A DNA stretch of 64,000 bases from Escherichia coli (GTDB taxonomy: Bacteria > Pseudomonadota > Gammaproteobacteria > Enterobacterales > Enterobacteriaceae): NCBI RefSeq assembly GCF_013122565.1, contig NZ_CP053258.1. One strand, 5' to 3'. Under the pieces are notes generated by a model. It saw only the letters and a program-made list of their open reading frames with translations, had not been told where the DNA came from and did not search any database. The number at the start of each line of letters is the position of its first letter. Positions within the stretch are counted from its first letter, which is position 1. Shown piece by piece: positions 2,628 to 50,437 of the stretch. A program made the translations under genes and the position numbers.

Positions 2628-3754
<1,127 letters not shown>

Positions 3755-4907: not shown

Positions 4908-5294
4908 TAGTGGAATCGCAGCTTATCAGAGACAATGAATCGCTTATTCAGCTTCATCATCTTGTTGCGCTCCTTTCATGAACTAAGCCATATATTGCCA
5001 CTGGCGCAAGGAGCGCGCAGGGGGAGGACAATCGCCTCCTCCCCCTGCACCCCCGGGCTCTGGCGAACAAAATCGCCGCTGCGCGGTACCTTCAGCTTAT
5101 CCCCTTCGGCTACCGGGTCGGGCGCGAGGTAACGTCCTTGTAAGACGCGCCCTCAGCCCACATCCATGTGGGCTGTCCCGGCCTTCGGGGAACGCTTCAG
5201 CGATTTTGACGCCACCAACACCGGAGCTGTTTGCAAATCAAGTACACAAAATATCTAGTTCCTGACCTGACAACTTATATGCCATATCTGATTT

Positions 5295-5378
5295 TTAAAA
5301 TATCATCTTAAATACGCCAGTCACCACCAGTAGCCCAATCAGGAAAATAATCAATACAGCCCAGAGTATAATTTTCAT
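5295..5378 (-). CDS. yohP: 27-aa small membrane peptide (MKIILWAVLIIFLIGLLVVTGVFKMIF)
   Basis: Short minus-strand ORF below the ORF-track size cutoff, single TM helix; matches my recollection of E. coli small protein YohP between dusC and mdtQ. Not verifiable here. Confidence 0.5.
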   Translation of the reverse strand: MKIILWAVLIIFLIGLLVVTGVFKMIF

Positions 5379-5601
5379 TGGCGTTCCTTTATTTGTGAGT
5401 GCTGAATAAGTATAGGAAAAAACGAAGCCCTTTGCCGTTATCCATAAACGATTAAGATAAATCGGAAGATATCATTCACTTAGTGTATATTTTTCTGGAT
5501 ATGTCGTTTTATTGCTACTGATGTATTGCCACGCGAAACTAAAAAATATATCGCAACACACGGTAATCTCCCCGCACCTTTTCTTACCTGATTATTCCCC
5601 C

Positions 5602-7038
5602 ATGAATCGTGATTCCTTTTATCCAGCCATCGCCTGTTTTCCGCTGTTACTGATGCTGGCCGGATGTGCGCCTATGCATGAAACCCGCCAGGCGTTAAGC
5701 CAGCAAACGCCCGCTGCACAAGTTGACACCGCATTACCCACGGCGCTGAAAAATGGTTGGCCAGACAGCCAATGGTGGCTGGAGTATCACGATAATCAAC
5801 TCACTTCATTAATTAACAATGCACTACAGAACGCACCGGATATGCAGGTGGCTGAACAGCGCATTCAGCTAGCTGAAGCCCAGGCGAAGGCAGTTGCTAC
5901 TCAGGATGGTCCGCAGATCGACTTTTCTGCGGATATGGAGCGGCAAAAAATGTCGGCAGAAGGGCTAATGGGGCCGTTTGCTCTGAACGATCCGGCCGCA
6001 GGTACGACCGGTCCGTGGTACACCAACGGAACTTTTGGCTTAACGGCGGGCTGGCATCTCGATATCTGGGGAAAGAATCGGGCGGAGGTTACTGCCCGCC
6101 TGGGTACGGTTAAAGCACGGGCGGCGGAACGCGAGCAAACCCGCCAATTGCTGGCTGGCAGCGTAGCCCGCCTGTACTGGGAGTGGCAAACCCAGGCGGC
6201 GTTAAACACGGTCTTGCAGCAAATAGAAAAAGAGCAGAACACCATTATCGCGACCGATCGCCAGCTATATCAGAACGGGATTACTTCTTCAGTTGAAGGT
6301 GTGGAAACCGATATTAATGCCAGCAAAACCCGGCAGCAGCTCAACGATGTCGCGGGGAAAATGAAAATTATTGAGGCACGGTTAAGCGCACTTACAAATC
6401 ACCAGACAAAGTCATTGAAGCTTAAACCGGTCGCGTTGCCGAAAGTGGCAAGCCAGCTTCCTGATGAACTGGGGTACTCCTTACTGGCCCGGCGGGCAGA
6501 TTTGCAGGCGGCGCACTGGTACGTTGAGTCATCGTTAAGCACCATTGATGCGGCGAAAGCGGCATTTTATCCTGACATCAACCTGATGGCCTTCCTGCAA
6601 CAGGATGCGTTGCACTTAAGCGATCTGTTCCGTCATTCCGCGCAGCAAATGGGCGTTACGGCAGGCCTGACGCTACCCATTTTCGATAGTGGTCGTCTTA
6701 ACGCAAACCTCGATATCGCAAAAGCCGAAAGCAACTTGTCTATCGCCAGCTACAACAAAGCAGTGGTTGAAGCGGTGAATGACGTGGCGCGGGCAGCCAG
6801 TCAGGTTCAGACACTGGCGGAGAAAAACCAGCATCAGGCGCAAATTGAGCGCGATGCCTTGCGTGTGGTAGGTCTTGCGCAGGCGCGCTTTAACGCGGGC
6901 ATCATTGCTGGTTCCCGTGTCAGCGAAGCCAGAATCCCGGCGCTGCGTGAGCGGGCCAATGGCCTGTTATTGCAAGGGCAGTGGCTGGATGCCTCCATTC
7001 AACTCACTGGTGCGTTGGGCGGGGGTTACAAACGCTGA
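5602..7038 (+). CDS. mdtQ: outer-membrane efflux lipoprotein (NodT/OMF family), intact 478-aa reading frame
   Basis: Start at ATG 5602 gives lipoprotein signal MNRDSFYPAIACFPLLLMLAGC (lipobox LAGC); OMF-family coiled-coil/beta-barrel repeats; uninterrupted ORF. Confidence 0.8.
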   Translation: MNRDSFYPAIACFPLLLMLAGCAPMHETRQALSQQTPAAQVDTALPTALKNGWPDSQWWLEYHDNQLTSLINNALQNAPDMQVAEQRIQLAEAQAKAVATQDGPQIDFSADMERQKMSAEGLMGPFALNDPAAGTTGPWYTNGTFGLTAGWHLDIWGKNRAEVTARLGTVKARAAEREQTRQLLAGSVARLYWEWQTQAALNTVLQQIEKEQNTIIATDRQLYQNGITSSVEGVETDINASKTRQQLNDVAGKMKIIEARLSALTNHQTKSLKLKPVALPKVASQLPDELGYSLLARRADLQAAHWYVESSLSTIDAAKAAFYPDINLMAFLQQDALHLSDLFRHSAQQMGVTAGLTLPIFDSGRLNANLDIAKAESNLSIASYNKAVVEAVNDVARAASQVQTLAEKNQHQAQIERDALRVVGLAQARFNAGIIAGSRVSEARIPALRERANGLLLQGQWLDASIQLTGALGGGYKR

Positions 7039-7090
7039 TGATATGCGCCTTCTATACTTAACGTTTATTCAGCGTTAAGTGGAGAACTCG

Positions 7091-7852
7091 ATGGCACAGG
7101 TCGCGATTATTACCGCCTCCGATTCGGGGATCGGCAAAGAGTGCGCGTTATTACTGGCGCAGCAGGGGTTTGATATTGGCATTACCTGGCACTCAGATGA
7201 AGAAGGGGCAAAAGATACCGCGCGTGAGGTGGTTAGCCATGGCGTACGTGCGGAGATCGTGCAACTGGATCTCGGCAATCTGCCAGAAGGTGCGCAGGCG
7301 CTGGAGAAACTCATTCAACGGCTGGGGCGTATTGATGTGCTGGTGAATAATGCGGGTGCAATGACCAAAGCGCCGTTTCTTGATATGGCTTTCGATGAGT
7401 GGCGCAAGATTTTTACCGTTGATGTTGATGGTGCATTTTTATGCTCGCAAATTGCTGCCCGTCAGATGGTGAAACAAGGGCAGGGCGGTCGCATCATCAA
7501 CATTACGTCGGTACATGAACATACACCGTTGCCGGATGCCAGCGCCTACACAGCCGCTAAACATGCGCTCGGCGGGTTAACCAAAGCGATGGCGCTGGAG
7601 CTGGTCAGGCATAAGATTTTGGTGAACGCAGTCGCACCTGGGGCGATCGCTACGCCAATGAACGGCATGGATGATAGCGACGTGAAGCCCGACGCGGAGC
7701 CTTCGATTCCTCTGCGGCGTTTTGGCGCAACGCATGAGATTGCCAGCCTGGTGGTGTGGCTTTGTTCGGAGGGCGCAAATTACACCACCGGGCAGTCGTT
7801 GATAGTGGATGGCGGCTTTATGTTGGCGAATCCGCAGTTCAACCCAGAATAG
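7091..7852 (+). CDS. yohF: short-chain dehydrogenase/reductase YohF, 253 aa
   Basis: Rossmann motif TASDSGIGK and catalytic YTAAK seen; GGAG SD 6 nt upstream of ATG 7091. Confidence 0.85.
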   Translation: MAQVAIITASDSGIGKECALLLAQQGFDIGITWHSDEEGAKDTAREVVSHGVRAEIVQLDLGNLPEGAQALEKLIQRLGRIDVLVNNAGAMTKAPFLDMAFDEWRKIFTVDVDGAFLCSQIAARQMVKQGQGGRIINITSVHEHTPLPDASAYTAAKHALGGLTKAMALELVRHKILVNAVAPGAIATPMNGMDDSDVKPDAEPSIPLRRFGATHEIASLVVWLCSEGANYTTGQSLIVDGGFMLANPQFNPE

Positions 7853-7969
7853 CGCAGTGAGGTGCGTGGTTATTTCAATGGGGAATATTTTGGTAGGCAT
7901 GGTAAGACGCGCCAGCAACGCATCAGGCATGTTGGATGCGGCGCGAGCGCCTTACCCAAGGCAATGGTT

Positions 7970-8548: not shown

Positions 8549-8717
8549 AGGCCAGTCTGTCTCCCTTTGGTTGTCTGTAAGCATACACCCTGTGAATCAT
8601 TCACGCTGAAAAAGGACATACATCAGACGGTGCAAATTACATGGGTGAACAAAAAATAATCACAAGCTGGCTTATACTTGAACTGTCAGGTTCATGAACT
8701 CACAACAAGGGGGCGGT

Positions 8718-31600: not shown

Positions 31601-34600
31601 TTAATGGAAAATGACGTCGGGTGCGCTTAACGCCTCACTCAAATCAAACACATCAAGTTCGGCAAAAGTGACGGATTTATTGTCACGGTACACTCGAAGA
31701 GAACGGAAGCTCATTAACGCTTTGCTATCAACATTGTAGTGGTTAAAACCGGGTGAAAACTTAAGGACCAGCCGGTACTCGCCCAGGTCATAGACAAATG
31801 CATCCTCATAGCCTGACTCCCAGCCTTTGTATCGCATTCCCATAAGCTGCCCAACGGTAGCGGATTTACCTTCCCAGCGAGTCAGGCTGTTACTGGTTGA
31901 CTCGTCAGGTGTGAGCAGCACCGTGCGGCGCGACAACTGGCGAAAAGGCGGCATAATTTCGTAATCGGCAAAAAGCTGTGCAAATTCACTGCGCATTTCT
32001 GCTGTCATTTCTAACGGGTGGGCAATGCCAATCAGAGCATCCGCAGGCAGGTCAATGGGCTCATCTTGCGCATTGCAGAACTCACCCTCTGCGGCCACAC
32101 GAAAGGCGTTGAGTAAACGACGCGGTTCATTTGCTGGATACACGCCCCATATTAATCGCTGAGTAACCAGGCGGGTAAAGGGATGATTAACAAACAGAGA
32201 ATGAAAATCTGCCAGCGACCAGCGTCGGGTGGTACGTAGGGCTGCTTCAAGACGCGGGAGCAGGTTTTTGCTCACCTGGGTGGCATCTTTTTTTAGCCCT
32301 TTTAGTCGGGCCAGTGCCTCGGGCGCTTTCAGTTGATCGTCATCGGCGCGCAACCGGGGAACACTTTTCTGGCGAACGTTTTGTTGATCAAAGATAACCG
32401 GGTTGAGGTTTTCATCGAAGCGAACGGTAAACTGCCGGGGACCAAAATCAAAAATCAACGCCTGCGGATCATCAAGACCCAGTGTTGGGACTAATCTGTC
32501 CGCTAACTCTTCCTGGCTTAGCCCGCGATTTTCTGCGACCACCTGAAGAAATTCCGCTGCGTTTTCACGTAATGAAGAGGATTTCGCCCGTTGTGATACA
32601 TGATGCAGCTGTATCAGCGCCATATCATTATTCATCAGGGTAAGTATATTCAGACCACTGACAGCACGGGCAGATTTGCCTTCTTGTGGCCAGGCGAGGA
32701 TCTGTGTCGTTAGATCCCGTGCCGTGCTTTCGTCACCAAAGAGACTTAACGCCAGAAATGCCCAGTTGTCTTTTGCGGGGGCACCAGCTTGTTGCCAGGC
32801 GGTGAAGAGATCCCAGGCAAAAGCTGCCAGCGTTTGCGGCTGGCAGAACGATTTCAGTTGTTCCAGTCCGCTATAAAAACGTCCCCCCTGGGTAAAGCGC
32901 AGCATTTCGCCGATAATTTCCAGAGCGTCATCGGTAACAGGTTGATTATTAGTGATAAGTCGAGGCCTGGACCACATTGCCGGATGCCAGAAATCAGGGG
33001 CTTTTGGAATGCGTGCCGGGTAAATCTCTATTTGACTCTGTTTAAGTAATTGTTCCAGGGCAGGCCATACATCAGCGCGATCCCAGCGGTTTGCCACGGT
33101 TTGTAGTAATACGCCATGTCCCTGTTCATACAGTAAACGCAGGGCAAGTAATGCAGCTTCGCTATTATCGCTGGATTTGGTGAAGACAAGAGGGATAAGT
33201 GCAGTAGCCGTATGTTCCGGCCATTGTAAAATCCACTGGCGGGCCAGATCACGCTGCGCCGCGAAACGTCGCCAGACGCGGGCAACAGGCAGGGCCAGTT
33301 CTGTTGCGCCAAAATGAATCAGCAGAGGAAATATCTCTTTTGGATGTCGGGCAAAGGCGGTGTTTAATCCAGGCAAAGCATCGGTACCCAGCACACTTAA
33401 CAGATATTCCCCCCCGGTGTAATGAAAATCAGCCTCGACAATTTGTTGCCAGCACGATACCGCCATTTCGTGCGGCATCTGCGCGATAAGGTACAGATTC
33501 CAAATCCCCCAACGCTTTTTATTACCATAGTAAAATCCGTGCTGAAAAGTTCGCCACCCTCCCATCAGCGCAATGCTATCTTGTGCCAGTAATGCTTTGG
33601 TGGCTTCTTCCCGGTACTGTTTAGATTTGGCCTGATACGCGTGATAAGTACGCAATAGTCCTATTGATGTGTATTCTTGCAGTTGCTGAGCATCAAAGGC
33701 ATCCAACTGTCCATGAAGAAGACGCTTATTAAATTCCAGGCTATGAACGTCAAAACCTAATTCCCGCAAGAAGGTATCCGCCCCTCTCTTAGCAAGACGT
33801 TCGTCAAAAGACATGGCGCTAAAATGGTCAATTGCAGTTTGCTGTTCCGGCGTCCAGTGTTTATTCGGCGACCTGTACGTTTGCGGTGCAAGCGTAAGAT
33901 CAGGCAGCGAAAAGTGAGGTATGGAAGTCTTTTTCTTCCTCCCACGCCATGGTGGTGAAACGAGGATTTCAGGCATTTGGCTGTTATCGGTACTATCAAT
34001 AACCGGTTTGGGCGGTGCCAATAAATAACTATTCAGTACTGCCCGGGCTTGAGTACTTAACCACTGCATCACCTCTTCTGCCAGTTGTGGCTGCGATGCC
34101 ATCAGCGTTTGTAACAGCGTACGCCAGTATTCATCTCGAGCTTTTTGCTGGGCAGGCAGCTTTTTGTCTTCGATGATTGGATAACCAGGGCGGGCTGGTG
34201 GTTCTTTTAACGCCAGCAGTTCTGCCAGTGCCGCGAGCGTCGCGTGGGGGAAGTTTTTACTGTATTTAGCCACACGTTGCAGGCTGGGTTTGTTTTTATC
34301 AGCCACCAGTAGCAAGGTGCGGATGACCTGCGGATGGTTAATTTGTACCAACAGACTGCCGCAATCTTCTTTATGGGCATACATCGCGAGGCGCGGAATG
34401 GCTGCCAGTCCTTGTTCGCGCAAAAGGGCGGCGCAGGCCGCGTAGCCGAAGTGGTTTTCATGCGACATGTAGCTGGCTTCGCGATCGCTAAATATATCCT
34501 GACTCCAGTAGTGATCGAGTTTCCTCACCGCTGTGGGGTCATTAGCAACAACTTTTAGCCACTCCTTAGAATGATAATGAGTCCGTGGGCATTCAAGGCC

Positions 34601-35248
34601 TATCAACTCATTGGCGATTTCTGGTTTTTCCGGGAGGATCAGCGCAATAAAAGGGCGGCGAACTTTGGTTATTCCTGGCAGTGCGGCAATGAGTTTGTCG
34701 GCGCAACGCTGCCAGCAGCTTTCCTCTGCCAGAGAGAGATGCTTACGCAGTCGGAGATCGAATTCGTTATAGGTTTCTGATCGATAACCATAGCCATAGT
34801 CCTCGTTCTGATACTGCAATGTCACTACCAGAGGATCACTCTCATAACACCGCGCAATAAACTGGCGTGCAATCACCACCTCAGTCGCATATTCCAGCCC
34901 CTCTTGTTGGACGATTTCGTCGAGTAACTGTTGGCTGTCATTTTGCGCGATACAGGCTAGCGCCGCCATTGTCCGGGCCGGGATTGAGGGTTTGTGTTCG
35001 CCGATCAAGTTGATGGCCTGCGTGATGGCGGACTGCCACTCCAGTGAAAAATTCTCATAACGCCAGACAATGTTTTTTTTCTTCTCAGCTTTTTGTAGCA
35101 ATTCATCACCCAGTGTCTGAATGATGCTTTCAGTGATAACAGGCACTGGTTCGCCCGGCCAATTGCGATGGCTGAGTGGTGTTTTGCCTTTTTTATATTT
35201 CAGTTCCAGTTGGGCGTTATCCGCCAGCCACGGTAATTCCTTGTCCAT
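31601..35248 (-). CDS. yehI: giant MolR-like protein YehI (1215 aa), lacking the N-terminal WGR domain
   Basis: Shares conserved C-terminal blocks with the four upstream paralogs (FAQLFADYEIMPPFRQL, RRWSLADF...HPFTRLVTQRLIWGVY, LEYATEVVIA); begins at the LPWLADN motif that follows the WGR domain in the paralogs. Confidence 0.85.
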   Translation of the reverse strand: MDKELPWLADNAQLELKYKKGKTPLSHRNWPGEPVPVITESIIQTLGDELLQKAEKKKNIVWRYENFSLEWQSAITQAINLIGEHKPSIPARTMAALACIAQNDSQQLLDEIVQQEGLEYATEVVIARQFIARCYESDPLVVTLQYQNEDYGYGYRSETYNEFDLRLRKHLSLAEESCWQRCADKLIAALPGITKVRRPFIALILPEKPEIANELIGLECPRTHYHSKEWLKVVANDPTAVRKLDHYWSQDIFSDREASYMSHENHFGYAACAALLREQGLAAIPRLAMYAHKEDCGSLLVQINHPQVIRTLLLVADKNKPSLQRVAKYSKNFPHATLAALAELLALKEPPARPGYPIIEDKKLPAQQKARDEYWRTLLQTLMASQPQLAEEVMQWLSTQARAVLNSYLLAPPKPVIDSTDNSQMPEILVSPPWRGRKKKTSIPHFSLPDLTLAPQTYRSPNKHWTPEQQTAIDHFSAMSFDERLAKRGADTFLRELGFDVHSLEFNKRLLHGQLDAFDAQQLQEYTSIGLLRTYHAYQAKSKQYREEATKALLAQDSIALMGGWRTFQHGFYYGNKKRWGIWNLYLIAQMPHEMAVSCWQQIVEADFHYTGGEYLLSVLGTDALPGLNTAFARHPKEIFPLLIHFGATELALPVARVWRRFAAQRDLARQWILQWPEHTATALIPLVFTKSSDNSEAALLALRLLYEQGHGVLLQTVANRWDRADVWPALEQLLKQSQIEIYPARIPKAPDFWHPAMWSRPRLITNNQPVTDDALEIIGEMLRFTQGGRFYSGLEQLKSFCQPQTLAAFAWDLFTAWQQAGAPAKDNWAFLALSLFGDESTARDLTTQILAWPQEGKSARAVSGLNILTLMNNDMALIQLHHVSQRAKSSSLRENAAEFLQVVAENRGLSQEELADRLVPTLGLDDPQALIFDFGPRQFTVRFDENLNPVIFDQQNVRQKSVPRLRADDDQLKAPEALARLKGLKKDATQVSKNLLPRLEAALRTTRRWSLADFHSLFVNHPFTRLVTQRLIWGVYPANEPRRLLNAFRVAAEGEFCNAQDEPIDLPADALIGIAHPLEMTAEMRSEFAQLFADYEIMPPFRQLSRRTVLLTPDESTSNSLTRWEGKSATVGQLMGMRYKGWESGYEDAFVYDLGEYRLVLKFSPGFNHYNVDSKALMSFRSLRVYRDNKSVTFAELDVFDLSEALSAPDVIFH

Positions 35249-35257
35249 GCTCTTTCC

Positions 35258-38200
35258 TTATTCAAACAGGGCTTCAATATCATTAATTAACTCGCTGGTG
35301 GTGATGGCATCGAGTACGGAGAACTGCGCTTCCTGAGTTGAATTATTCCTCCAGCCATAGCTTTCTGCTTTGCCTTCCCATAGCCACAGCTTGCTTAAGA
35401 GCTGCTCGGCGCTAAGTTCGGCTGGCGACATACCCACAGCAAAGCCTTCATCGATTTCCATGATTAACGACCAGCGGCCCAGGGGTTTGATCATCCAGCA
35501 GATCCAGCCTCCATCCTGTGGTTCGCCCTTTATCCAGCCTTTATTCGCCAGCCCCATGACCCGACCACTCGGGCATTTTCTGCCTGCCCAGCGGGTCAGT
35601 TCGCTGGCGTTGCGCTCGGCTTCTGTCAGGGCGTAACTGTTACGGTCAAGCTGACGGAACGGTGGTAGCAGTTCGTAGTCGGCAAAAAGCTGACCAAAGG
35701 CGGCAGCATCCGTCGGTGATATTTCCAGAACGTGAGGAATACCAATAGAGATATCGCCTTCCGGCAGGGTGAAAAGATCATCGTCAGCGGTGCTGTAACT
35801 GTTATCTTCCGCCACGCGAAAGCACGCCAGCAGCTGGTTTTCGGCGCTATAAACGCCCCAAATCAGACGACGGGTTAAGTGGCGAACCAGCGGGTGCTCA
35901 ACCAGGAAAAGCTGAAAGTTTTCCGGCGACCAGCGGCGGCGCAGGCACATGGCGGATTCCAGCCTTGCTACCTGCTGGGCGGCGACGGTACGCGCATCTT
36001 TTTTCAGCAATTTGTAGCGGTTTACCGCCTCATCAGCCCGCGATTCATCATCGCTTTTATTGGGTTTAGGTAAGTCTTTCAGGCGGCTGCCGGAAACATC
36101 ACGCACAAACGGTTTTAAGGTTTCATCAAAGCTGACGGTGAACTGGCGTGAGCCGAAATCCAGCAGCAACGAACCGTTATCATCCAGACCGAGATCCGGG
36201 GCCAGGCGATCTTCTAGCTCCGCCACCGTGAGTTCGCGGCTTTCGGCAATGTCGGCAATTTTTTCTTTTGCCCGCTCCTGTAATGCTTTGAATTTCAGTT
36301 TCTGGGCGATGCCGTTAAGTTGCATCAAGGCGATATCACTACCGATAGTGGCGAGAATATCCAACCCAACGGTGGCGCGTTTATGCTGGGATTCACCAGG
36401 CCAGGCACGGATTAATGGCGTCAGTTTGCGGGCGGTGTCATCGTTACCGAGAACACCTAACGCGTTGAACGCCCAGCTCTCTTTCGACGGCGCGCCAGCG
36501 GTCTGCCAGGCGGTAAACAGATCCCAGGCAAATCCCGCCAGTGAGTCGGGGGTACAGGCATCTTTCACCTGCAATAATCCCGGATACAGTGCCTCTTCCT
36601 GAGGGAAGCGGAGCATTTCACCGAGGTAGAGTAGGGCGCTATCGGGCAGTGATTGGGCGTTTGCTTTTAATACCGGGCGCGTCCAGAGCGATGGCTGATA
36701 AAAGGCCGGAAGAGTGGGGATTTTTGTCGGGTGATTATCTAAGGGATCGAGCGCAAGCAGAGCGTTCACCGCGTCTGTTACTTCCGGCTGGTTATAACGC
36801 CGGGCGATTTCTTGCAGTAATGGCTGATGACCGTTTTCGGTAAGCATACGCAAGGCAGCGCGGGCGTTATCCTGTGCTTCACCGGCTTTGCCGAGCGCGG
36901 CAGGCAGCAGGCCGGTAATGGCGTGTTCCGGGTATTTCAACAGCCAGCTACGGGCGTCTTGTCGTAGGGTTTTGAGTTTGTTGAAGGCGCGGGCAATCAG
37001 TGGCGCTAATTCGATAGCCGCAAAATATTGTGCTATAGGCAGCGCTTCTTGCGGATAGCGAGATGCTGAGTGGATAAAACCTGTTAAACCAGCAAGTCGA
37101 AGATGCAACATTACTTGTTTTGCACCTGTATGTGGTTCTTTACTAAGGATGTTCCACATCTCGATAGCTTTATTAATGGGTAAAACATGGAGTGAAGAAA
37201 GATTCCATTCGCCCTGATAAGGGGAGTTATAGGACTTAAAAGCATCAATCAGCGCTGAATAATCTTCACGCTGCCAGGCATCCAGTGCTATTTCTGGAAC
37301 ATCAATATAGCCTCTATGTTTGTTCCAATCCCAGCGGTTGAATCCCAGGGAGGTCAGAAAAGCTTTTTCTCCCTCAGCTTGCTGATGAGGTTGCCAGTTA
37401 TGCTGCACTTGCAGTGTTTTGCTTTTTGTTTCATTTATTGTACAGAAGGATTCTAGGGATAATGGTGCTAAATCCAGCACCGAAATCGTCGATTTTTTCT
37501 TTTTAGCCAGCCAGGGCGGTGAGATTAGTACGGCAGGCAGCAAATCGGCGTTCGCATAAACTGAAGGTTGTGTCAGTTGTTGCAGGCATGACTTAAGTTC
37601 GGTAACCGCCGGAGCAGATAGCCAGGGAATTACCTGCTCTGCTAATGTTGGTTGTGAGATAAGCATTGTCATTAGCATCATGCGCCAGCGCTTTTCATCT
37701 TTTTGTGCCAGAAGTTCTGCTAATGCCGCCAGCGCTGCATGTGGAAAGCGAACGAAAGCCTTTGTCATGCGATCGTGGCAACGCTTTCCCTGCTCGCTTG
37801 CATGGATAAGTAGTGTAAGTGCCTGGGGGTGGTTGATATGCATCAACACTTCCCCACATGTGTCACCAGCAGCGTAAGGAGCAAAACGGGCCAGCGCAGC
37901 GACACCTTGCTCCTTGAGTATCGTTGCACACCAGATTTTACCGCCGTAATAATCATCAAATACCTGCCCAGGCTGTCCTGGATAGTATTTTCCCAGTTCT
38001 GCCAATACCTGCTCGTCGGTGGTCGTCAGTTTCAGCCATTCCAGCGCATATAACCCTTTTTGTCCACAAAGATGTCTGGCAATCTCATGAGCTACTTCTG
38101 GTTTTTCCGGCAACAATAGTGCAACCAGTGGCTGGTGCCACGTGGGCATGGTTCCGAGAGCGGCAATCAGTTTGTCGGCGCAGCGCTGCCATACATCGTC

Positions 38201-39016
38201 ATTTGCAAGTGAGAGATGCTTACGCAGGCGCATTTCAACCGAAGCGAAGCGTAACAGATAGCCAGGCTGCCTGTTATCCGGGGTAACCGTAATGAGATGG
38301 GCATCATAATCCCAGTCGAAGCGGATGAATTGCAATGCAATGACAACCTCAGTGGCATATTCCAGACCACCTTCCTGGACAATTTGATCCATTAGCTCTT
38401 CATGATCGTTACGATTGAAGCCTTGTTCCAGCGCAACCAGTACCGCCAGAACCATCGGTGGTAGCGTGGTGCTAATTGGCGAGTCGATAAGGCCTACGGC
38501 TTGTGTAATTGCCTGCTGCCAGTCCAGTGAACAGGTGCTGTAATCGAAGGTGAGCACCTTTTTAAAACGCCGGTGAGTATTCGCGGCGACGGAGCGTAGC
38601 AGGGTTAATTCATTCTCCTGTGGCACAGGAGCGCCAGGCCAGCGTCGATGACTTAGTGTGGTTGGCGCAACCTCTGTCGGTAAAATGATTTGGGTGTCGT
38701 CTGCCAGCCAGGGGAGGTGGTCTCCAGTAAATGCCGGTTTGTCTTGTGGCAAAGGGGTTATTTCCGGGCATTCGATAACCTTGCCGGGCGCAGATGTCGG
38801 TGTCATCACGGATACTTCTTCTACGTAGCCCTTTTTTGTTTTCTCCGTAATCAGCTTCAGTTCCGCTTTTTCCGCCGCTGCAGCATCTGCAAAGCTTTTT
38901 ACCTGGCTTTGCCCGTTAGTACCGACTTTGCCCCAGGTAATATGCAGCTCGTTTCCCTGCTGCTCCACCGCCCAGAATTTATGTGATTTTTCATCCTGAT
39001 AAATATAGGTTTTCAT
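35258..39016 (-). CDS. MolR-like giant protein, paralog 1 (1252 aa): N-terminal WGR domain plus YehI-like body
   Basis: N-terminus MKTYIYQDEKSHKFWAVEQQGNELHITWGKVGTNGQ (WGR signature); body shares blocks with YehI; 9-nt gap to yehI. The corresponding K-12 locus (molR) is a pseudogene by my recollection. Confidence 0.8.
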   Translation of the reverse strand: MKTYIYQDEKSHKFWAVEQQGNELHITWGKVGTNGQSQVKSFADAAAAEKAELKLITEKTKKGYVEEVSVMTPTSAPGKVIECPEITPLPQDKPAFTGDHLPWLADDTQIILPTEVAPTTLSHRRWPGAPVPQENELTLLRSVAANTHRRFKKVLTFDYSTCSLDWQQAITQAVGLIDSPISTTLPPMVLAVLVALEQGFNRNDHEELMDQIVQEGGLEYATEVVIALQFIRFDWDYDAHLITVTPDNRQPGYLLRFASVEMRLRKHLSLANDDVWQRCADKLIAALGTMPTWHQPLVALLLPEKPEVAHEIARHLCGQKGLYALEWLKLTTTDEQVLAELGKYYPGQPGQVFDDYYGGKIWCATILKEQGVAALARFAPYAAGDTCGEVLMHINHPQALTLLIHASEQGKRCHDRMTKAFVRFPHAALAALAELLAQKDEKRWRMMLMTMLISQPTLAEQVIPWLSAPAVTELKSCLQQLTQPSVYANADLLPAVLISPPWLAKKKKSTISVLDLAPLSLESFCTINETKSKTLQVQHNWQPHQQAEGEKAFLTSLGFNRWDWNKHRGYIDVPEIALDAWQREDYSALIDAFKSYNSPYQGEWNLSSLHVLPINKAIEMWNILSKEPHTGAKQVMLHLRLAGLTGFIHSASRYPQEALPIAQYFAAIELAPLIARAFNKLKTLRQDARSWLLKYPEHAITGLLPAALGKAGEAQDNARAALRMLTENGHQPLLQEIARRYNQPEVTDAVNALLALDPLDNHPTKIPTLPAFYQPSLWTRPVLKANAQSLPDSALLYLGEMLRFPQEEALYPGLLQVKDACTPDSLAGFAWDLFTAWQTAGAPSKESWAFNALGVLGNDDTARKLTPLIRAWPGESQHKRATVGLDILATIGSDIALMQLNGIAQKLKFKALQERAKEKIADIAESRELTVAELEDRLAPDLGLDDNGSLLLDFGSRQFTVSFDETLKPFVRDVSGSRLKDLPKPNKSDDESRADEAVNRYKLLKKDARTVAAQQVARLESAMCLRRRWSPENFQLFLVEHPLVRHLTRRLIWGVYSAENQLLACFRVAEDNSYSTADDDLFTLPEGDISIGIPHVLEISPTDAAAFGQLFADYELLPPFRQLDRNSYALTEAERNASELTRWAGRKCPSGRVMGLANKGWIKGEPQDGGWICWMIKPLGRWSLIMEIDEGFAVGMSPAELSAEQLLSKLWLWEGKAESYGWRNNSTQEAQFSVLDAITTSELINDIEALFE

Positions 39017-40450
39017 TGCAAATTCCTTTTAATCAAACAGTGATTCAATATCGTTAATCAGCTCGCTGGCAGTGATGTCGTCGAGCACGGAGAAGGGATA
39101 AACCGATTTGCGCGGCGTCAGTTTGTACAACTGAATGTGCTCAATTTTTTGGTTATCGCTGATTTCGGTGACGGGCAATCCAACACAGAAGCCGGGTGTC
39201 ACACTCAGTTCGACGTAGCCATCATCCACAGCTTTATAAAATGAGTAATAGCCGCCACCATCCAGAACATCGCCCCGTTGCCAGCCTTTATTCATCAGCC
39301 CGGCGACGCGCCAACTCGCTGCCTGGCGACCAGCCCAGCGCTGCAAATCGTTGCTGTTTTTTTCTGAATCAGAGAGCTGAGACCAGGGGCGATCAAGTTG
39401 ACGGAACGGTGGCAGGAGTTCGTAGTCAGAGAACAGTTGGGCAAATTCAGCAGCCTGTGGGGCCGGGATTTCCAGCACATGCGGGATACCGATACAGCCC
39501 TGCGCAAGGGTAAACGGGGTATCCTGACCGTCGCTAAAACTGCCATCCTCCGCCACGCGAAAACAGCAAATAAGGTGATTATCAGCGTCATAAATGCCCC
39601 ACATCAGACGTTGGGTGATATGACGAACCAGGGGATGCTCAACCAGAAACAGGCGGAACTGTTCTGCAGTCCAGCGGCGACGCTGACACATGGCGGCTTC
39701 CAGACGCGAAATCTGTTGTGCAGCTACCGTGCGGACATCTTTTTTCAACAACTTGTAGCGATTTACCGCTTCCTCAGCCAGCGTTTCATCATCGCTTTTG
39801 TTCGGTTTGGGCAGGTCTTTCAGACGGTTGCCGGAAGTATCGCGCACAAACGGTTTTAAGGATTCATCAAAGCTGACGGTGAACTGGCGTGGGCCGAAAT
39901 CCAGCAGCAGCGAACCGTTATCATCCAGACCGAGATCGGGCGCTAACCGGTCTTCCAGCTCTGCGACAGTGAGCTGGCGGCTTTCGGCAATCTGGGCGAT
40001 TTTAGTTCTAGCCTGATCCTGCAAGGCTTTAAATTTTAGCTTTTGCGCAATGCCGTTAAGCTGCATCAGGGCGATATCGCTGCCGATAGCAGCAAGAATA
40101 TCCAGCCCGACAGTGGCGCGTTTATGCTGGGATTCCCCCGGCCAGGCGCGGATGAGCGGGGTGAGTTTGCGGGCGGTGTCATCGTTACCCAGAATCCCCA
40201 GTGTGGTAAATGCCCAGTTATCTTTAGCTGAGCCACTGGCAGATTCCCAACTGAGGAAGAGATCCCAGGCAAAATCGGCAAGAGATTGCGGGGTACAGGC
40301 CTCGATTACCTGTGTAATTCCTGGGTAAAGGGTGGCTTCGCGGGGGAAAGAGAGCATGGTGCACAGGTGCAGGATGGCTGAATCTGAAAGTGCCTTGCCG
40401 TTACTGCGCAGAAGCGGGCGGTGCCATACTTCTGGCGAACACCACCCAGG
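39017..40450. repeat. about 1.4 kb direct repeat (copy A) spanning the 3' part of paralog 2 and its downstream junction
   Basis: Near-identical by eye to 42866..44300 (offset 3849 bp); only scattered substitutions over the first about 1.2 kb; spurious plus-strand ORFs recur at identical offsets (39196/43045, 39798/43647, 40050/43899). Confidence 0.8.
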
Positions 40451-42865
40451 GAGTTTAGCGATTTTCTGCGGATAGTTTTCCAGCGGATCTGCTGCTAAAA
40501 AGTCGGTAAGTGCAGTCATTACCTCAGGTTGTTGGTAACGGCTGGCAATTTTTTTCAGCAACGCGAGATGACCATTATTGGCCAGGTAGCGTAATGTCAT
40601 CCGGGCATCTTGTTGTTCTTTAACTGGTTTACTCAGCGCAATGGGCAGCAGCCCGGTAATGGCATGTTCCGGGTAGGTGGTGAGCCAATATTCAGCGACA
40701 TCTCGTACGGATTTTAACTGGCAAAATGCGCGGGCCATCAGCAGGGCAACTTCAGTGGAACCGAATTGAGCGGCGAGGGGAACCGCCTCCTTAGGGTTTA
40801 CCAGGGCATAACGCAACAGACCTGGTACCGTAGATAGACCAAATCGCTCAACCACTTTTTCAGCACCCACGAGGTGCATGTGTGAGAGTCCATTCCAGAT
40901 TGAGAGCGCTTTCTCTGCTGGTAGACGAGTGAGTATGGATACAGAAAAGGTAATAAAACCTTCATAATCATACTTTGGTCGGGTATTTAACAACGATTCA
41001 TAATCTTCCGTTTCCAGCAGACGAATGGCCGTTTTTGTTACGCCCCATTTAATATCAAATCTTTCTGGATCAGGATTATTCTCATCAAATGCTCCGCTTC
41101 TGAATCCCAGGCGGCGTAAGACTTCAGCAGTAGAAGGTATTTCTGCTTCGGGTTGTGGCTGAGGTTTGGGGCCAATGGACTCCAGAGGTAATACGGGTAA
41201 TGTAAATATCGTCGTGGCTGATTTATTCTTTTTCTTCAGCCAAATTGGATTAGTTAATATACCGGGTAACTCACAAGCATTGGCTATCTCTTCTTTAGCA
41301 TGCAATTGAGGGAAATAACTGAATAAAAGTTGTTTCTGTTCCTCACTCAACCAGGGCATTGTATTACGCAAGGTTTGAGCATTACCTAATACAATTTGTT
41401 CCATCAGGCGAGAATACCTCAGATTTTTAGCACTAAGCAAAGCTGCAGTAAGGGCATAAAGCGCCGATTCTGGGTACTTCGAAGCCGAAATTTCGACACC
41501 TATGGCACATTCCTCTTTGATAAACAACGTAACGACATCAGGATGGTTAATTTCCTGAAGTGCGTGTCTGACAGGATAACTATCGTTAACGCCCTCTTGC
41601 AGACGTGACAGCGCATTAAGACCTTGTTCACGCAGTAGGGTTTTAATACAACGCTTCGTCATATCGCCTCCCCATCCCGTTGTGAGTTCAAGTTGATGGA
41701 AATGCTTCAGCAGACACGTTGCTTGTGGGTCAGTTGTGACAAGGGAAAGCCACTCAATCTCTGGGTAATCATGCATAGGGGCAATTTCCAGGGCTATCTG
41801 ATTGGCAATATCTGGTTTTTCTGGTAGCAAAAAAGCAATTAATGGGCGTCTGCGGGCAGGCAGTGAAGGGAGAGCATCTATGAGTTTATTAGCACAGCGT
41901 TGCCAGGTTTCCTCATCTGTGTGCGAAAGGTGTTCTCGTAAACGTAACTCTATTTCGTCGCTGAATCCATATTTGTAGCGCATGTCGGAAATATCGTGGC
42001 TAAGGCTTACTACAGGTAGATAATAATTGTCTGCCATTTCCCCTCTTCTCAGCGCACTAAAAAGACTATTGTAATGAAGTTTTAAAGTGGCATTTTTTGT
42101 AGGATCGGTATTTGCGTCGTCAGTCATTTGTACATGCTGTATAGCGATAACTAACTCAGTGGCATACTCAAGGCCTCGCAGTTGCACTATGCTATCCAGC
42201 CATGTATGAGGGCGACCGGGGCAGCCGATAATTAATCTTGTTAGTGTCAATATGGCGTCGGAAAGCAACGATCCGTCTTGCTGTAATTTATGGATGCGCG
42301 AAATAGTTTCCTGTAACGCCAATTGCCATTCTGACTGGCATTGGCTGACATCGAGCTTTTGCAGACAGGCAAGGTAAAATGCTGCCCAATATGGGTACTT
42401 TTTTAGTTGCATCCAGAAGAAACCATCTTTATCAACAATGTCCAGAGGATCATTAATCAAGTGACGATGGCTAAACGGCGCGGGTTCATCATTGGCAAAA
42501 ATAACAATTGACTCACCGTCCTTCAGCCAGGGCGGCGTTTCCAACGTGGGCATCGCTTGTGGCTGTGCCGTTTCAGGCGTTGTGAAGTTTCCGGTTGGTA
42601 TTGCTAACTCTTGTACTGAAATTGTGCTTGATATCGGAGAATTTATGATGGTTTCTGGCGAACCATGCTTCACATATCCCTTCTTCATCTTCTCCGCAAT
42701 CAGCTTCAGTTCCGCTTTTTCCGCCGCTGCAGCATCTGCAAAGCTTTTTACCTGGCTTTGCCCGTTAGTACCGACTTTGCCCCAGGTAATATGCAGCTCG
42801 TTTCCCTGCTGCTCCACCGCCCAGAATTTATGTGATTTTTCATCCTGATAAATATAGGTTTTCAT
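39029..42865 (-). CDS. MolR-like giant protein, paralog 2 (1278 aa)
   Basis: Same WGR N-terminus; C-terminal about 470 aa near-identical to paralog 3; 12-nt gap to paralog 1. Confidence 0.8.
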   Translation of the reverse strand: MKTYIYQDEKSHKFWAVEQQGNELHITWGKVGTNGQSQVKSFADAAAAEKAELKLIAEKMKKGYVKHGSPETIINSPISSTISVQELAIPTGNFTTPETAQPQAMPTLETPPWLKDGESIVIFANDEPAPFSHRHLINDPLDIVDKDGFFWMQLKKYPYWAAFYLACLQKLDVSQCQSEWQLALQETISRIHKLQQDGSLLSDAILTLTRLIIGCPGRPHTWLDSIVQLRGLEYATELVIAIQHVQMTDDANTDPTKNATLKLHYNSLFSALRRGEMADNYYLPVVSLSHDISDMRYKYGFSDEIELRLREHLSHTDEETWQRCANKLIDALPSLPARRRPLIAFLLPEKPDIANQIALEIAPMHDYPEIEWLSLVTTDPQATCLLKHFHQLELTTGWGGDMTKRCIKTLLREQGLNALSRLQEGVNDSYPVRHALQEINHPDVVTLFIKEECAIGVEISASKYPESALYALTAALLSAKNLRYSRLMEQIVLGNAQTLRNTMPWLSEEQKQLLFSYFPQLHAKEEIANACELPGILTNPIWLKKKNKSATTIFTLPVLPLESIGPKPQPQPEAEIPSTAEVLRRLGFRSGAFDENNPDPERFDIKWGVTKTAIRLLETEDYESLLNTRPKYDYEGFITFSVSILTRLPAEKALSIWNGLSHMHLVGAEKVVERFGLSTVPGLLRYALVNPKEAVPLAAQFGSTEVALLMARAFCQLKSVRDVAEYWLTTYPEHAITGLLPIALSKPVKEQQDARMTLRYLANNGHLALLKKIASRYQQPEVMTALTDFLAADPLENYPQKIAKLPGWCSPEVWHRPLLRSNGKALSDSAILHLCTMLSFPREATLYPGITQVIEACTPQSLADFAWDLFLSWESASGSAKDNWAFTTLGILGNDDTARKLTPLIRAWPGESQHKRATVGLDILAAIGSDIALMQLNGIAQKLKFKALQDQARTKIAQIAESRQLTVAELEDRLAPDLGLDDNGSLLLDFGPRQFTVSFDESLKPFVRDTSGNRLKDLPKPNKSDDETLAEEAVNRYKLLKKDVRTVAAQQISRLEAAMCQRRRWTAEQFRLFLVEHPLVRHITQRLMWGIYDADNHLICCFRVAEDGSFSDGQDTPFTLAQGCIGIPHVLEIPAPQAAEFAQLFSDYELLPPFRQLDRPWSQLSDSEKNSNDLQRWAGRQAASWRVAGLMNKGWQRGDVLDGGGYYSFYKAVDDGYVELSVTPGFCVGLPVTEISDNQKIEHIQLYKLTPRKSVYPFSVLDDITASELINDIESLFD

Positions 42866-44300
42866 TGCAAATTCCTTTTAATCAAACAGTGATTCAATAT
42901 CGTTAATCAGCTCGCTGGCAGTGATGTCGTCGAGCACGGAGAAGGGATAAACCGATTTGCGCGGCGTCAGTTTGTACAACTGAATGTGCTCAATTTTTTG
43001 GTTATCGCTGATTTCGGTGACGGGCAATCCAACACAGAAGCCGGGTGTCACACTCAGTTCGACGTAGCCATCATCCACAGCTTTATAAAATGAGTAATAG
43101 CCGCCACCATCCAGAACATCGCCCCGTTGCCAGCCTTTATTCATCAGCCCGGCGACGCGCCCACTCGCTGCCTGGCGACCAGCCCAGCGCTGCAAATCGT
43201 TGCTGTTTTTTTCTGAATCAGAGAGCTGAGACCAGGGGCGATCAAGTTGACGGAACGGTGGCAGGAGTTCGTAGTCAGAGAACAGTTGGGCAAATTCAGC
43301 AGCCTGTGGGGCCGGGATTTCCAGCACATGCGGGATACCGATACAGCCCTGCGCAAGGGTTAACGGGTTATCGTGACCGTCGCTAAAACTGCCATCCTCC
43401 GCCACGCGAAAACAGCAAATAAGCTGATTATCAGCGTCATAAATGCCCCACATCAGACGTTGGGTGATATGACGAACCAGGGGATGCTCAACCAGAAACA
43501 GACGGAACTGTTCTGCAGTCCAGCGGCGACGCTGACACATGGCGGCTTCCAGACGCGAAATCTGTTGTGCAGCTACCGTGCGGACATCTTTTTTCAACAA
43601 CTTGTAGCGACTTACCGCTTCCTCAGCCAGAGTTTCATCATCGCTTTTGTTCGGTTTGGGCAGGTCTTTCAGACGGTTGCCGGAAGCATCGCGCACAAAC
43701 GGTTTTAAGGATTCATCAAAGCTGACGGTGAACTGGCGTGGGCCGAAATCCAGCAGCAGCGAACCGTTATCATCCAGACCGAGATCGGGCGCTAACCGGT
43801 CTTCCAGCTCTGCGACAGTGAGCTGGCGGCTTTCGGCAATCTGGGCGATTTTAACTCTTGCCTGATCCTGCAAGGCTTTAAATTTTAGCTTTTGCGCAAT
43901 GCCGTTAAGCTGCATAAGAGCGATATCGCTGCCGATAGCAGCAAGAATATCCAGCCCGACAGTGGCGCGTTTATGCTGGGATTCCCCTGGCCAGGCGCGG
44001 ATGAGCGGGGTGAGTTTGCGGGCGGTGTCATCGTTACCCAGAATCCCCAGCGCGGTAAATGCCCAGTTATCTTTAGCGGAGCCACTGGCAGATTCCCAAC
44101 TGAGGAAGAGATCCCAGGCGAAATCAGCAAGAGACTGCGGAGTACAGGCCTCGATTACCTGTGTAATCCCGGGGTAAAGGGTGGCTTCACGGGGGAAAGA
44201 GAGCATGGTGCACAAGTTCAGGATAGCTGAGTCAGGAAGTGCCTTGCCGTTACTGTGCAGAAGCGGGCGATGCCATACTTCTGGCGAACACCAGGTGGGG
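42866..44300. repeat. about 1.4 kb direct repeat (copy B) spanning the 3' part of paralog 3
   Basis: See copy A. Confidence 0.8.
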
Positions 44301-46618
44301 AGTTTGGCGATTTTCTGCGGAAAATTATCGAGTGGGTCGCAGTTAAGGACATCTAACAAACCTGTAAGCACTTCTGGCTGATTATAGCGGTGGGCAATTT
44401 GTTCCATTAACGGCTGATGCCCATGATGAGCCAAATAGCGTATTGCCATCACAGCATCCTCACGTTCACTGCCCGGTTTGCCGAGTACAGCAGGTAATAG
44501 ACCTGTAATAGCATGTTCCGGATAGGTTAATAACCAACGCTGTGCGACGTCACGTACAGATTTTAGCTGACGAAAAGCGCGTGCCATTAATAGCGCCACG
44601 TCGGTTGTACCAAAACGTGCGGCTAAAGGAATGGCTTCCTGAGGTACGACTAAGGCGTGACGCAGCAAGCCGGGTAATGTGGGAAGACCGTAATAGTCCA
44701 CTACTTCGCATGCGTTAATCAGATGTAGGTGAGTCAGTGCGTTCCATATTTTCAGTGCTTTATTTTCTGTTAGCTGAAGCAATACAGACACATTGACAAG
44801 GATATGACTTGCCCACCGAGGTTTATCCCAGATCTTTAATAAAGCTTCGTAATTGTCTTGCTCGAAAAAATCAATGGCAGCCTGAGGTATACCCCAACCA
44901 AGCTCTTCGCAATGGAAGTTCAACAAATCCAGGATATCTTTCGCTGATGGGGATGGCGCAGATGGCTCAGTCAGATTTTTTGTTGCGGGGATAGATTCCA
45001 GGGGGGAAAGAGGTAATACCCGGAGAGTGAGGTTGATACCAGCAACCTTTTTCTTTTTTTTCACCCATGAAGGGGCGATCAATATACTAGGTAACTCATT
45101 CTGATGAGCAATTTTTTCGCTGGACATAAGCTGAGGAAAATAACTAAATAAAATTTGTTGCTGTTTTTCGTCAAGGCAGGGTAGCGTTTTATGTAAGGCT
45201 TGCGCATTACCCAAGATGATGCGCTCCAGTAAACGATAATAGCGCGGGTTATTTGTGTGATTTAAGGCTTTTGTTAATGCATAAAGTGCAGCTTCTGGAT
45301 GTAAATTTGTTGCGCATTCCACTTCACTGATACATTCTTCTTTTATTAATATATTAATGGCGTCAGGATGATTAACTTGTGTAATTAGATTTTTAACTGA
45401 ATAACTATCCTTTATCCAACGCTGAAGAAGCGGAAGAGCTTTTACCCCTCGTTCGCGCAGTAATGTCGCAGTGCATTTTTCAGCCATCTGCCAGTCGTTA
45501 TAGCGCTTAAGTTGGTTAAGATTCATTAATTCATTGAGTGCCTGCGCATCTGTGGCAACGATATCCAACCATTCCATTTCTGGGTAATTAACACATTGCA
45601 CTAAATCAAGGACAATTTGATTAGCAATTTCAGGTTGTTCAGGCAAAAGAAAACCAATTAAAGGACGTTTACGTGGAGACAGGAAAGGCAACGCTTGAGT
45701 AAGCTTTTTCATGCACCGTTGCCATGTTTTTTCATCAGTGCGCGAGAGATGATTTCGCAAGTGAAAATCTACAGTGCTGAAGCCGAACTCAAAACGTTGT
45801 TCTGATATTGTGTTACTGAGAATAAGCGTTGGTACGGAATTATTTGTAAAAAAATTGTATTCCATGCGAACATACAAAAGGCATTTATTTAATGCATCAC
45901 AATTTCCTGGATCTTGATTTTGATCATCAGATATCTGAATTTGCTGCAATAGCAAGACTAATTCGGTCGCGTATTCTACCCCATGTTGTTGCACCAGATA
46001 ATCAAAAAGATCATTGACACTATCGCTATTTTGCATAAGTAACTTGACCAGCAAAAAGAATGCATCGGAGAAAATAGAACCGTCTATATTTTTCTGCTGA
46101 ACGCGCATGATTGCTTCATCCCGGCCTCGTTGCCATTCCGGGCGGCAGTCACTCACATCAAAATGCTGTAATTGTGCAAGAAAATAGTATTCCTCATATT
46201 TGTTTTCCCATAAGAATGACCATAACGAGATATCTTTAGCAAACGTGCTGACACTGTCTGCTGGGAATTTCCTACTGCTAAATACTCTCTTCGTTTCGAG
46301 AATAATTGGTTCAATGTCTGCAATCCACGGTGGTGTGTCGACATCAGTAATAATTGGATGTTGTTCGCTATCATCATCTGTGGTGGGAACAGCAATCAGC
46401 ATGTTTATATCGTCAGTCGATTTTACATACCCCTTCTTCACCTTCTCCGCAATCAGCTTCAGTTCCGCTTTTTCCGCCGTTGCAGCATCTGCAAAGCTTT
46501 TTACCTGACTTTGCCCGTTAGTGCCGACTTTGCCCCAGTTGATATGCAGCTCGTTGTCTTGCTGCTCAACCGCCCAGAATTTATGTGATTTTTCGTCCTG
46601 ATAGATATAGGTTTTCAT
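42878..46618 (-). CDS. MolR-like giant protein, paralog 3 (1246 aa)
   Basis: WGR N-terminus; divergent, AT-rich N-terminal/central coding region; C-terminus near-identical to paralog 2. Confidence 0.8.
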   Translation of the reverse strand: MKTYIYQDEKSHKFWAVEQQDNELHINWGKVGTNGQSQVKSFADAATAEKAELKLIAEKVKKGYVKSTDDINMLIAVPTTDDDSEQHPIITDVDTPPWIADIEPIILETKRVFSSRKFPADSVSTFAKDISLWSFLWENKYEEYYFLAQLQHFDVSDCRPEWQRGRDEAIMRVQQKNIDGSIFSDAFFLLVKLLMQNSDSVNDLFDYLVQQHGVEYATELVLLLQQIQISDDQNQDPGNCDALNKCLLYVRMEYNFFTNNSVPTLILSNTISEQRFEFGFSTVDFHLRNHLSRTDEKTWQRCMKKLTQALPFLSPRKRPLIGFLLPEQPEIANQIVLDLVQCVNYPEMEWLDIVATDAQALNELMNLNQLKRYNDWQMAEKCTATLLRERGVKALPLLQRWIKDSYSVKNLITQVNHPDAINILIKEECISEVECATNLHPEAALYALTKALNHTNNPRYYRLLERIILGNAQALHKTLPCLDEKQQQILFSYFPQLMSSEKIAHQNELPSILIAPSWVKKKKKVAGINLTLRVLPLSPLESIPATKNLTEPSAPSPSAKDILDLLNFHCEELGWGIPQAAIDFFEQDNYEALLKIWDKPRWASHILVNVSVLLQLTENKALKIWNALTHLHLINACEVVDYYGLPTLPGLLRHALVVPQEAIPLAARFGTTDVALLMARAFRQLKSVRDVAQRWLLTYPEHAITGLLPAVLGKPGSEREDAVMAIRYLAHHGHQPLMEQIAHRYNQPEVLTGLLDVLNCDPLDNFPQKIAKLPTWCSPEVWHRPLLHSNGKALPDSAILNLCTMLSFPREATLYPGITQVIEACTPQSLADFAWDLFLSWESASGSAKDNWAFTALGILGNDDTARKLTPLIRAWPGESQHKRATVGLDILAAIGSDIALMQLNGIAQKLKFKALQDQARVKIAQIAESRQLTVAELEDRLAPDLGLDDNGSLLLDFGPRQFTVSFDESLKPFVRDASGNRLKDLPKPNKSDDETLAEEAVSRYKLLKKDVRTVAAQQISRLEAAMCQRRRWTAEQFRLFLVEHPLVRHITQRLMWGIYDADNQLICCFRVAEDGSFSDGHDNPLTLAQGCIGIPHVLEIPAPQAAEFAQLFSDYELLPPFRQLDRPWSQLSDSEKNSNDLQRWAGRQAASGRVAGLMNKGWQRGDVLDGGGYYSFYKAVDDGYVELSVTPGFCVGLPVTEISDNQKIEHIQLYKLTPRKSVYPFSVLDDITASELINDIESLFD

Positions 46619-46630
46619 TGCTAAATCCTT

Positions 46631-49600: not shown

Positions 49601-50437
49601 AAAAGGTTGCCGTGCTGGAGATAGCGAGGGAATAGCCGCGAGTACTTTATCTACACAGCGTTGCCACTCATCTTCTGAAGCGAGTGAAAGATGATGACAT
49701 AGACGTTGATGCCAACTAGGTAGCGATTCTGCTTCGTGATTAGGTGGAATGATGGTGGTTACTGCGCCTTTTACTGGTTTATATCTAAGTTGAATAGCGA
49801 GAAGGGCAATTTCAACGGCGCTTTCCAGACCACAGCGAATGACTAAGTCATCGACCAGTTCATCTGCAGAGTAAGAGTTCCAGAAACTCCAGAGCAATGC
49901 TGCATCAGATTGCGCACTCCCTGTCTGTTGATTACCCTGAACTCGCATTTGTAACTCAGCAAAAGCATGCTGCCAGTTTTCTGGATAAGAACGGTAATTG
50001 TTGTCGGGATCATATGCCCTGGTGTTATCTGCAATACGCTTCCATATCTCACCGTCTTTGCGCAGATAATTGATCTCTCTGGGGCGAGAGCGATGAGGGA
50101 AAGCAAATCGATTAATATCGTCAGTTACCGGAATGACTGCATCATCAGCCAGCCATGGGCGTTTGTTTTTACTCTCAAGGGAAGTTTCAACTTCAGGAGT
50201 GGCTTTGGTGCTGGAGATATGCACGTTTGCTGAAGCATCTTCCACATAGCCTTTTTTCGTTTTCTCTGCGATAAGCTTTAGTTCCGCTTTTGCCGCTGCC
50301 GCAGCATCCGCAAAACTTTTTACCTGGCTTTGCCCTTGGGTGCCAACTTTTCCCCAACTGATATGCAACTCGTTTCCCTGTTGCTCCACCGCCCAGAATT
50401 TATGTGATTTTTCGTCCTGATAGATAAAGCGTCTCAT
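46631..50437 (-). CDS. MolR-like giant protein, paralog 4 (1268 aa)
   Basis: N-terminus MRRFIYQDEKSHKFWAVEQQGNELHISWGKVGTQGQ (WGR); most divergent of the four but retains conserved blocks (TARKLTPLIRAWPGESQHKRA, DYELLPPFQQLDR). Confidence 0.8.
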   Translation of the reverse strand: MRRFIYQDEKSHKFWAVEQQGNELHISWGKVGTQGQSQVKSFADAAAAAKAELKLIAEKTKKGYVEDASANVHISSTKATPEVETSLESKNKRPWLADDAVIPVTDDINRFAFPHRSRPREINYLRKDGEIWKRIADNTRAYDPDNNYRSYPENWQHAFAELQMRVQGNQQTGSAQSDAALLWSFWNSYSADELVDDLVIRCGLESAVEIALLAIQLRYKPVKGAVTTIIPPNHEAESLPSWHQRLCHHLSLASEDEWQRCVDKVLAAIPSLSPARQPFAALLLPERPDIANAMALRYADQNVPAMTWLRLVITDDTALSTVEKYDFPPLYRDFRNFRAYLAMLLANNGIRGVSQILLEFTEEHSDNPTYLFERNSETENLVKWLWKTNHPDAIQILILGVIGKKKHLEYLSKACQKHPAAALAAYATLLAIHEDAQWRNALIKLITITPELVCDVIPWVNAKAAGILSECRPQSVAEECEYATADMLPELFVSPPWMTKEKKKNTPVFDLPVLPVPSVSDITPEIAKKLTRTYLITRFQQIAQQQATKQTLFTDLAPMKKASWEKHLIPLTPEQQILWHLGFEKWRESGEKIYEKIPAPQSAVDALLRFDFPALNAEFVQYHNNAYKSWNLIALCYLPGQQAISFLNQIVKEDNYSGEGNILALFGSAAIPAFMTCLQRDPRRLCFFPFFLGVSELALPMAQQLQKKMSYEDARNWLTDYPRHAAAGLLPVALGKKGKDRDCARQALRLLVNLNQRETIEEIAQGYNQPDVLAALATLFDSDPLEEYPAKIAPLPGFYQFTLWHRPRLKSNNLPLPDDAMRHLGTMLSFPRDITAYAGLDIIRETFTRESLADFGWDLYTAWTEAGAPAKENWAFTSLGILGNDDTARKLTPLIRAWPGESQHKRAVSGLDVLADIGSDVALMLLNGIARKIKFKALQEHAREKINIVAENRGLTMAELEDRLAPDLGLDSNGSLTLDFGPRQFTVGFNETLKPVVRDANGKVLKDLPKPNQSDDQTLATDAVNLFKQLKKDVRAIASQQIDRLEQAMCQRRRWTAEQFRLFLVEHPLVRHLTRRLLWGVYNDENALITCFRVAEDSTYSDAQDELFTLPAGNIGIPHVLEIPPESAAAFRQIYIDYELLPPFQQLDRGSYHLADNERDAHELSRWNGRLCQAGRIVGLERRGWQRLEESGSIYAMRKSTPYGALELETEPFSLIYGETGYSDLLPVESVKITAPYDRYGKQSSPTFSVLNDITASELINDIESLFD

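Follow-up and report, generated by a model that had tools for sequence, protein, structure and literature searches.

An intact mdtQ gene for a TolC-family outer-membrane factor in Escherichia coli, compared with the frameshifted K-12 allele

The mdtQ gene, its product and its surroundings

The window analysed in this work is a stretch of 64,000 nucleotides of Escherichia coli DNA. The gene mdtQ (formerly yohG), encoding an outer-membrane factor of the TolC/NodT family, occupies positions 5602..7038 of its plus strand. The reading frame begins with an ATG at 5602 and ends with a TGA at 7036-7038; its 1437 nt correspond to 478 codons and the stop codon, and it contains no internal stops, so that the initial annotation was right to describe a single intact frame of 478 codons. 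A second mechanical ORF call (5512..7038, 508 aa, TTG start) is an upstream extension of mdtQ in the same frame, and the RefSeq start of the mdtQ orthologue is the ATG equivalent to that at 5602.

The N-terminus of the protein reads MNRDSFYPAIACFPLLLMLAGC. Codons 1-22 (5602..5667, plus strand) encode a lipoprotein signal peptide ending in the lipobox L-A-G-C, with Cys22 as its last residue and Ala at position +2. Lipoprotein signals of this kind are described by the PROSITE pattern PS51257, and retention according to the +2 residue by the Lol sorting rule. Applied to the translated sequence, the pattern matched at CFPLLLMLAGC, with six non-charged residues, Cys22, Ala at +2 and Arg3 within the seven N-terminal residues, and the LAGC lipobox reported previously is indeed intact.

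The assignment of the product as MdtQ, an outer-membrane efflux lipoprotein, is borne out by several comparisons. The NCBIfam equivalog NF008524 matches positions 1-478 of 478 with 1025.6 bits (cut-off 650, E = 0), the NodT lipoprotein subfamily TIGR01845 matches residues 16-475 with 274.1 bits (cut-off 210.05), and the Pfam family OEP (PF02321) is found in two stretches, i.e., as two tandem repeats, with 106.6 bits (cut-off 22). The best PF02321 stretch is the first repeat, residues 69-266, encoded at 5806..6399 on the plus strand. In the same profile search the protein scored below the cut-offs of its paralogue MdtP and of CusC-type channels. Sequence comparison with outer-membrane factors of solved structure revealed homology over nearly the whole mature chain to VceC (1yc9), OprM, SilC, CmeC, CusC, OprN, MtrE and OprJ; residues 51-477 align to residues 19-438 of VceC with an E value of 1.5e-39. 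The exact protein encoded in the window occurs in 1943 blocks of a public-assembly index, and it differs from MdtQ of an O157:H7 genome in 2 of 478 residues.

The neighbours of mdtQ, namely dusC, yohP, yohF, yohD, yohC and pbpG, follow the gene order of K-12 and other E. coli, and no adaptor or pump genes were found near mdtQ. The gene yohP for a small membrane protein of 27 codons (MKIILWAVLIIFLIGLLVVTGVFKMIF) lies intact on the minus strand at 5295..5378, divergently from mdtQ; the 96 bases containing it (5293-5388) match exactly the corresponding locus of strain STEC379 (L011). YohP is made in stationary phase and under starvation. The intergenic region between the two genes (5379..5601, on the plus strand of mdtQ) is the presumed location of the mdtQ promoter, and 1-6 of its 223 bases differ from those of five other E. 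coli strains. According to a 2025 review, the mdtQ promoter lacks experimental confirmation. A consensus scan of 4900-7150 for promoters and terminators found sites no more often than in shuffled sequences, and the yohP-mdtQ spacer contained none that resembled a promoter; there is no recognisable Shine-Dalgarno motif before the mdtQ ATG, and an Rfam search of 3500-9000 returned no matches. No terminator-like site was found on the plus strand between mdtQ and yohF, and the gap separating them is 52 bases long, so their co-transcription is possible.

Two further features of the neighbourhood deserve mention. The yohF gene of the window (7091..7852) is intact; in the Nissle 1917 record NZ_CP171242.1 (L012), where mdtQ is intact, yohF is annotated as a pseudogene containing an internal stop. 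The spacer separating dusC from yohP holds a segment of roughly 270 bp (4947..5218) whose alignment to the equivalent spacer is inverted in some E. coli strains, with about 88% identity, and collinear in another. Its position fits that of the published TRIP1c element, 43 bp after the stop of yohI/dusC and 363 bp before the start of yohG/mdtQ. The TRIP1c repeat has been described as mediating chromosomal rearrangements, and such a rearrangement could account for part of the difference in genes upstream of mdtQ at four of the loci sampled for comparison (L004-L006 and L008). A 65-codon ORF predicted within this segment (4935..5132) is probably spurious.

The K-12 lesion and the distribution of mdtQ alleles

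In K-12 MG1655 (NC_000913.3), mdtQ corresponds to b2139 (2227323..2228758), which is annotated as a pseudogene of 1436 bp, and one K-12-type RefSeq record labels the gene "frameshifted". This agrees with the statement in the initial annotation that the K-12 gene is disrupted, and the proposed alignment locates the disruption as a one-base deletion. In older annotations b2139 was split into two ORFs. The K-12 pseudogene is orthologous to the window gene, sits at the same position and shares 98.8% DNA identity with it. Pairwise alignment of the two contains a single gap, at gene position 148, where K-12 is short by one A in a run of five (5749..5753, plus strand; codons 50-51, AAA-AAT); the resulting run of four A shifts the frame, which then reads 19 wrong codons before it terminates at codon 70. 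The K-12 gene is thus neither intact nor identical to that of the window, which keeps all five A and reads through; the K-12-type four-A allele is absent here. Over the rest of the gene the alignment contains 17 substitutions, of which 16 are synonymous, and a single amino-acid difference, H267N. The K-12 lesion is therefore one event, and the sequence shows no sign of subsequent decay. A 2025 paper on YohP likewise mentions "the mdtQ pseudogene" of K-12.

The survey of complete E. coli genomes places this allele in perspective. The gene is present in 5420 of 5426 of them, with at least 80% of its length in 5390. The intact 71-mer centred on the five-A run has exact or near (at least 99%) matches in 4552 genomes, which is at least 84% of the complete genomes; about 500 further genomes match it at 95-99%, and these include full-length 71-base matches with a substitution, e.g., in APEC O18. 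The corresponding K-12 70-mer with four A is found, exactly or nearly (at least 99%), in 355 genomes, so that around 93% of complete E. coli genomes are without the K-12 deletion. Among the matches listed (60 of the 355), the four-A carriers look K-12-derived, are laboratory strains or have no clear source label; MG1655, C600, DH5alpha, DH1, J53, RR1, NCM3722 and AG100 are among them. BL21(DE3) carries the intact allele. Of 40 records sampled across the set, 35 had an mdtQ span of 1437 bp, i.e., full-length, and three, all K-12-type strains, had one of 1436 bp. One of the two remaining records spans 1438 bp because a G run close to its 3' end is one G longer, which leads to a 486-aa product still annotated as MdtQ, and the other, from strain STEC379, contains a gene truncated by an IS1 insertion and annotated as partial.

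Among the carriers listed, the disrupted K-12 allele is thus practically confined to the K-12 laboratory lineage, and lesions outside K-12, such as the IS1 truncation in STEC379, are sporadic. Independent truncations of mdtQ have also been described in some isolates of Salmonella Typhi and Paratyphi A. As had been proposed, strains differ at this locus, through the K-12 deletion, the extra G and the IS1 insertion; the emphasis nevertheless has to shift, since intactness is the norm in E. coli. It follows that finding the gene intact here is uninformative about this particular genome. The intact gene and the K-12 exception are already known; the 2025 review describes mdtQ as a conserved gene of the E. 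coli core genome, its annotation as a pseudogene notwithstanding.

The position of the lesion in a run of A, a typical site of indel errors, raises the question of whether a homopolymer error, made in sequencing or assembling either the window or the K-12 reference, has produced the difference. The chance of this is negligible, and the error is effectively refuted, as the four-A allele is carried by 355 independently assembled genomes and the five-A allele by at least 4552, so that each recurs in hundreds to thousands of assemblies. The same run could instead be read as a phase-variation switch turning mdtQ on and off by slipped-strand mispairing. A single homopolymer with two length alleles (four and five A) would suit such a switch, as would the additional base in the G run near the 3' end of mdtQ in a second strain, but the tract is only five bases long. 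Known contingency tracts are much longer than that. Moreover, among the 60 listed of the 355 carriers, the four-A form occurs only in K-12-type or laboratory strains and is not scattered over lineages. On the length of the tract and this distribution of the short allele we rejected mdtQ as a phase-variable contingency gene, a role that is highly improbable. The difference is best explained by a window gene that is, very probably, the ordinary, ancestral and intact mdtQ encoding a TolC-family outer-membrane factor.

Selection on mdtQ and divergence of the window

Selection on the protein was estimated by the Nei-Gojobori method against seven independently chosen alleles: the repaired K-12 gene and those of BL21(DE3), O104:H4, Nissle 1917, ECO_2_R, 51008369SK1 and 2012C-4502. 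With 15-36 synonymous and 1-6 non-synonymous differences per comparison, dN/dS ranged from 0.019 to 0.063. Six further loci (L004-L009) had been fetched by exact protein identity; their non-synonymous counts are zero by construction and they were left out as evidence for selection. From these loci encoding the identical protein, the window gene differs at 10 to 17 DNA positions, all synonymous. In a set of 15 sampled alleles, five mdtQ sites, likewise synonymous, are unique to the window. Values of dN/dS of 0.02-0.06 indicate that mdtQ is under strong purifying selection and that the protein is used for something, which lends support to the earlier suggestion that the gene is potentially functional in this strain.

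Judged from positions 1-25000, 5602-7038 and 29000-53900, the window has no close relative among the 5,426 complete RefSeq E. coli genomes: the best identity is 98.3% over positions 1-25000 and 99.3% over mdtQ. The mdtQ gene departs from its nearest allele at synonymous positions only, which is consistent with an E. coli-type lineage that has been poorly sampled and has diverged naturally. A 78-mer that covers two SNPs private to the window has no exact match in the GTDB species representatives. Further along, the minus strand at 31601..50437 carries five tandem ORFs of 1215, 1252, 1278, 1246 and 1268 aa, which are DUF4132/YehI-like according to the annotation of matching E. coli DNA. Pairwise identities of 32-67% mark the five as old paralogues. 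None of the complete E. coli genomes covers 80% or more of window positions 29000-53900; the best one covers 75% at 92.4% identity and contains three DUF4132 genes, and the exact product of the third DUF4132 copy of the window has no entry in the gene index.

Possible roles of MdtQ and comparison with known outer-membrane factors

Judging by its family, the MdtQ precursor would be exported and lipidated at Cys22 and, as there is no Asp at position +2, would be sorted to the outer membrane. Trimers of the protein would form a beta-barrel pore continued by a long periplasmic alpha-helical tunnel, and this tunnel would dock with an adaptor in the periplasm and a pump in the inner membrane to expel substrates. 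MdtQ is one of four outer-membrane factors of the TolC family in E. coli, the others being TolC, CusC and MdtP. With neither a pump nor an adaptor gene adjoining mdtQ, its product is best regarded as an orphan exit duct.

A further proposal is that intact MdtQ serves in natural E. coli, the present genome included, as a second, TolC-independent exit duct for at least one inner-membrane pump. We consider this unlikely. If true, conclusions reached in K-12, whose mdtQ is dead, would give too low an estimate of how redundant the outer-membrane channels are, of how much drug efflux persists once TolC is lost or inhibited, and of the effect of phages or colicins that target TolC.

A drug phenotype of the mdtQ null mutant towards puromycin, acriflavine and tetraphenylarsonium is credited to Sulavik et al. 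2001 in the 2025 review. If the strain used was K-12, such a phenotype is hard to reconcile with the K-12 frameshift. Since K-12 is a natural mdtQ mutant, experiments in this background, including screens with the Keio mdtQ::kan mutant, are silent on the function of MdtQ, which would be best studied in a strain with an intact allele (e.g., BL21(DE3)) or in a K-12 derivative whose run has been repaired to five A. That K-12 is a natural mutant in this gene is worth remembering, although it is not new and has little consequence for the genome analysed here.

It is possible, if somewhat doubtful, that mdtQ is intact and conserved and yet contributes nothing to drug efflux, the protein having another or a condition-limited export role or being too weakly expressed. 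To the same tentative degree, "multidrug resistance protein" would then be a name only. Such a reading gains from the orphan position of the gene, with adjacent pump and adaptor genes absent, from the lack of a recognisable ribosome-binding site or strong promoter, and from the small size of the reported null-mutant phenotypes. It also gains from the fact that loss of mdtQ is tolerated in K-12, in STEC379 (through IS1) and in certain isolates of Salmonella Typhi and Paratyphi A, and from the statement of the 2025 review that the function of MdtQ has not been elucidated. Against it speak the dN/dS values of 0.02-0.06, which mark MdtQ as a protein in use, and the closest relatives of solved structure, all of which are efflux ducts. 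The disagreement concerns the substrate and not the identity of the gene, and a role outside drug efflux is compatible with the explanation of the locus as the ordinary intact mdtQ.

Among the known systems, MdtQ (YohG) of other E. coli, e.g., WP_001078133.1 or Q8X659 of UniProt (O157:H7), is the same gene as that of the window, with 478 aa, the dusC-yohP-mdtQ-yohF context and a full-length match to the equivalog. MdtP (YjcP), the paralogous E. coli outer-membrane factor of the mdtNOP operon, is like MdtQ a NodT-type lipoprotein; however, MdtQ scores 356 bits against the MdtP equivalog, below its cut-off of 597, and while MdtP is encoded together with its adaptor and pump (2025 review), mdtQ stands alone. 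VceC (1yc9), OprM (1wp1), CusC (3pik) and, more distantly, TolC are homologues across nearly all of mature MdtQ and represent distant paralogues; in the 2025 review, the identity between an MdtQ model and TolC is given as 12%. These solved factors have VceAB, MexAB, CusBA and AcrAB as partners, in contrast to the orphan MdtQ.
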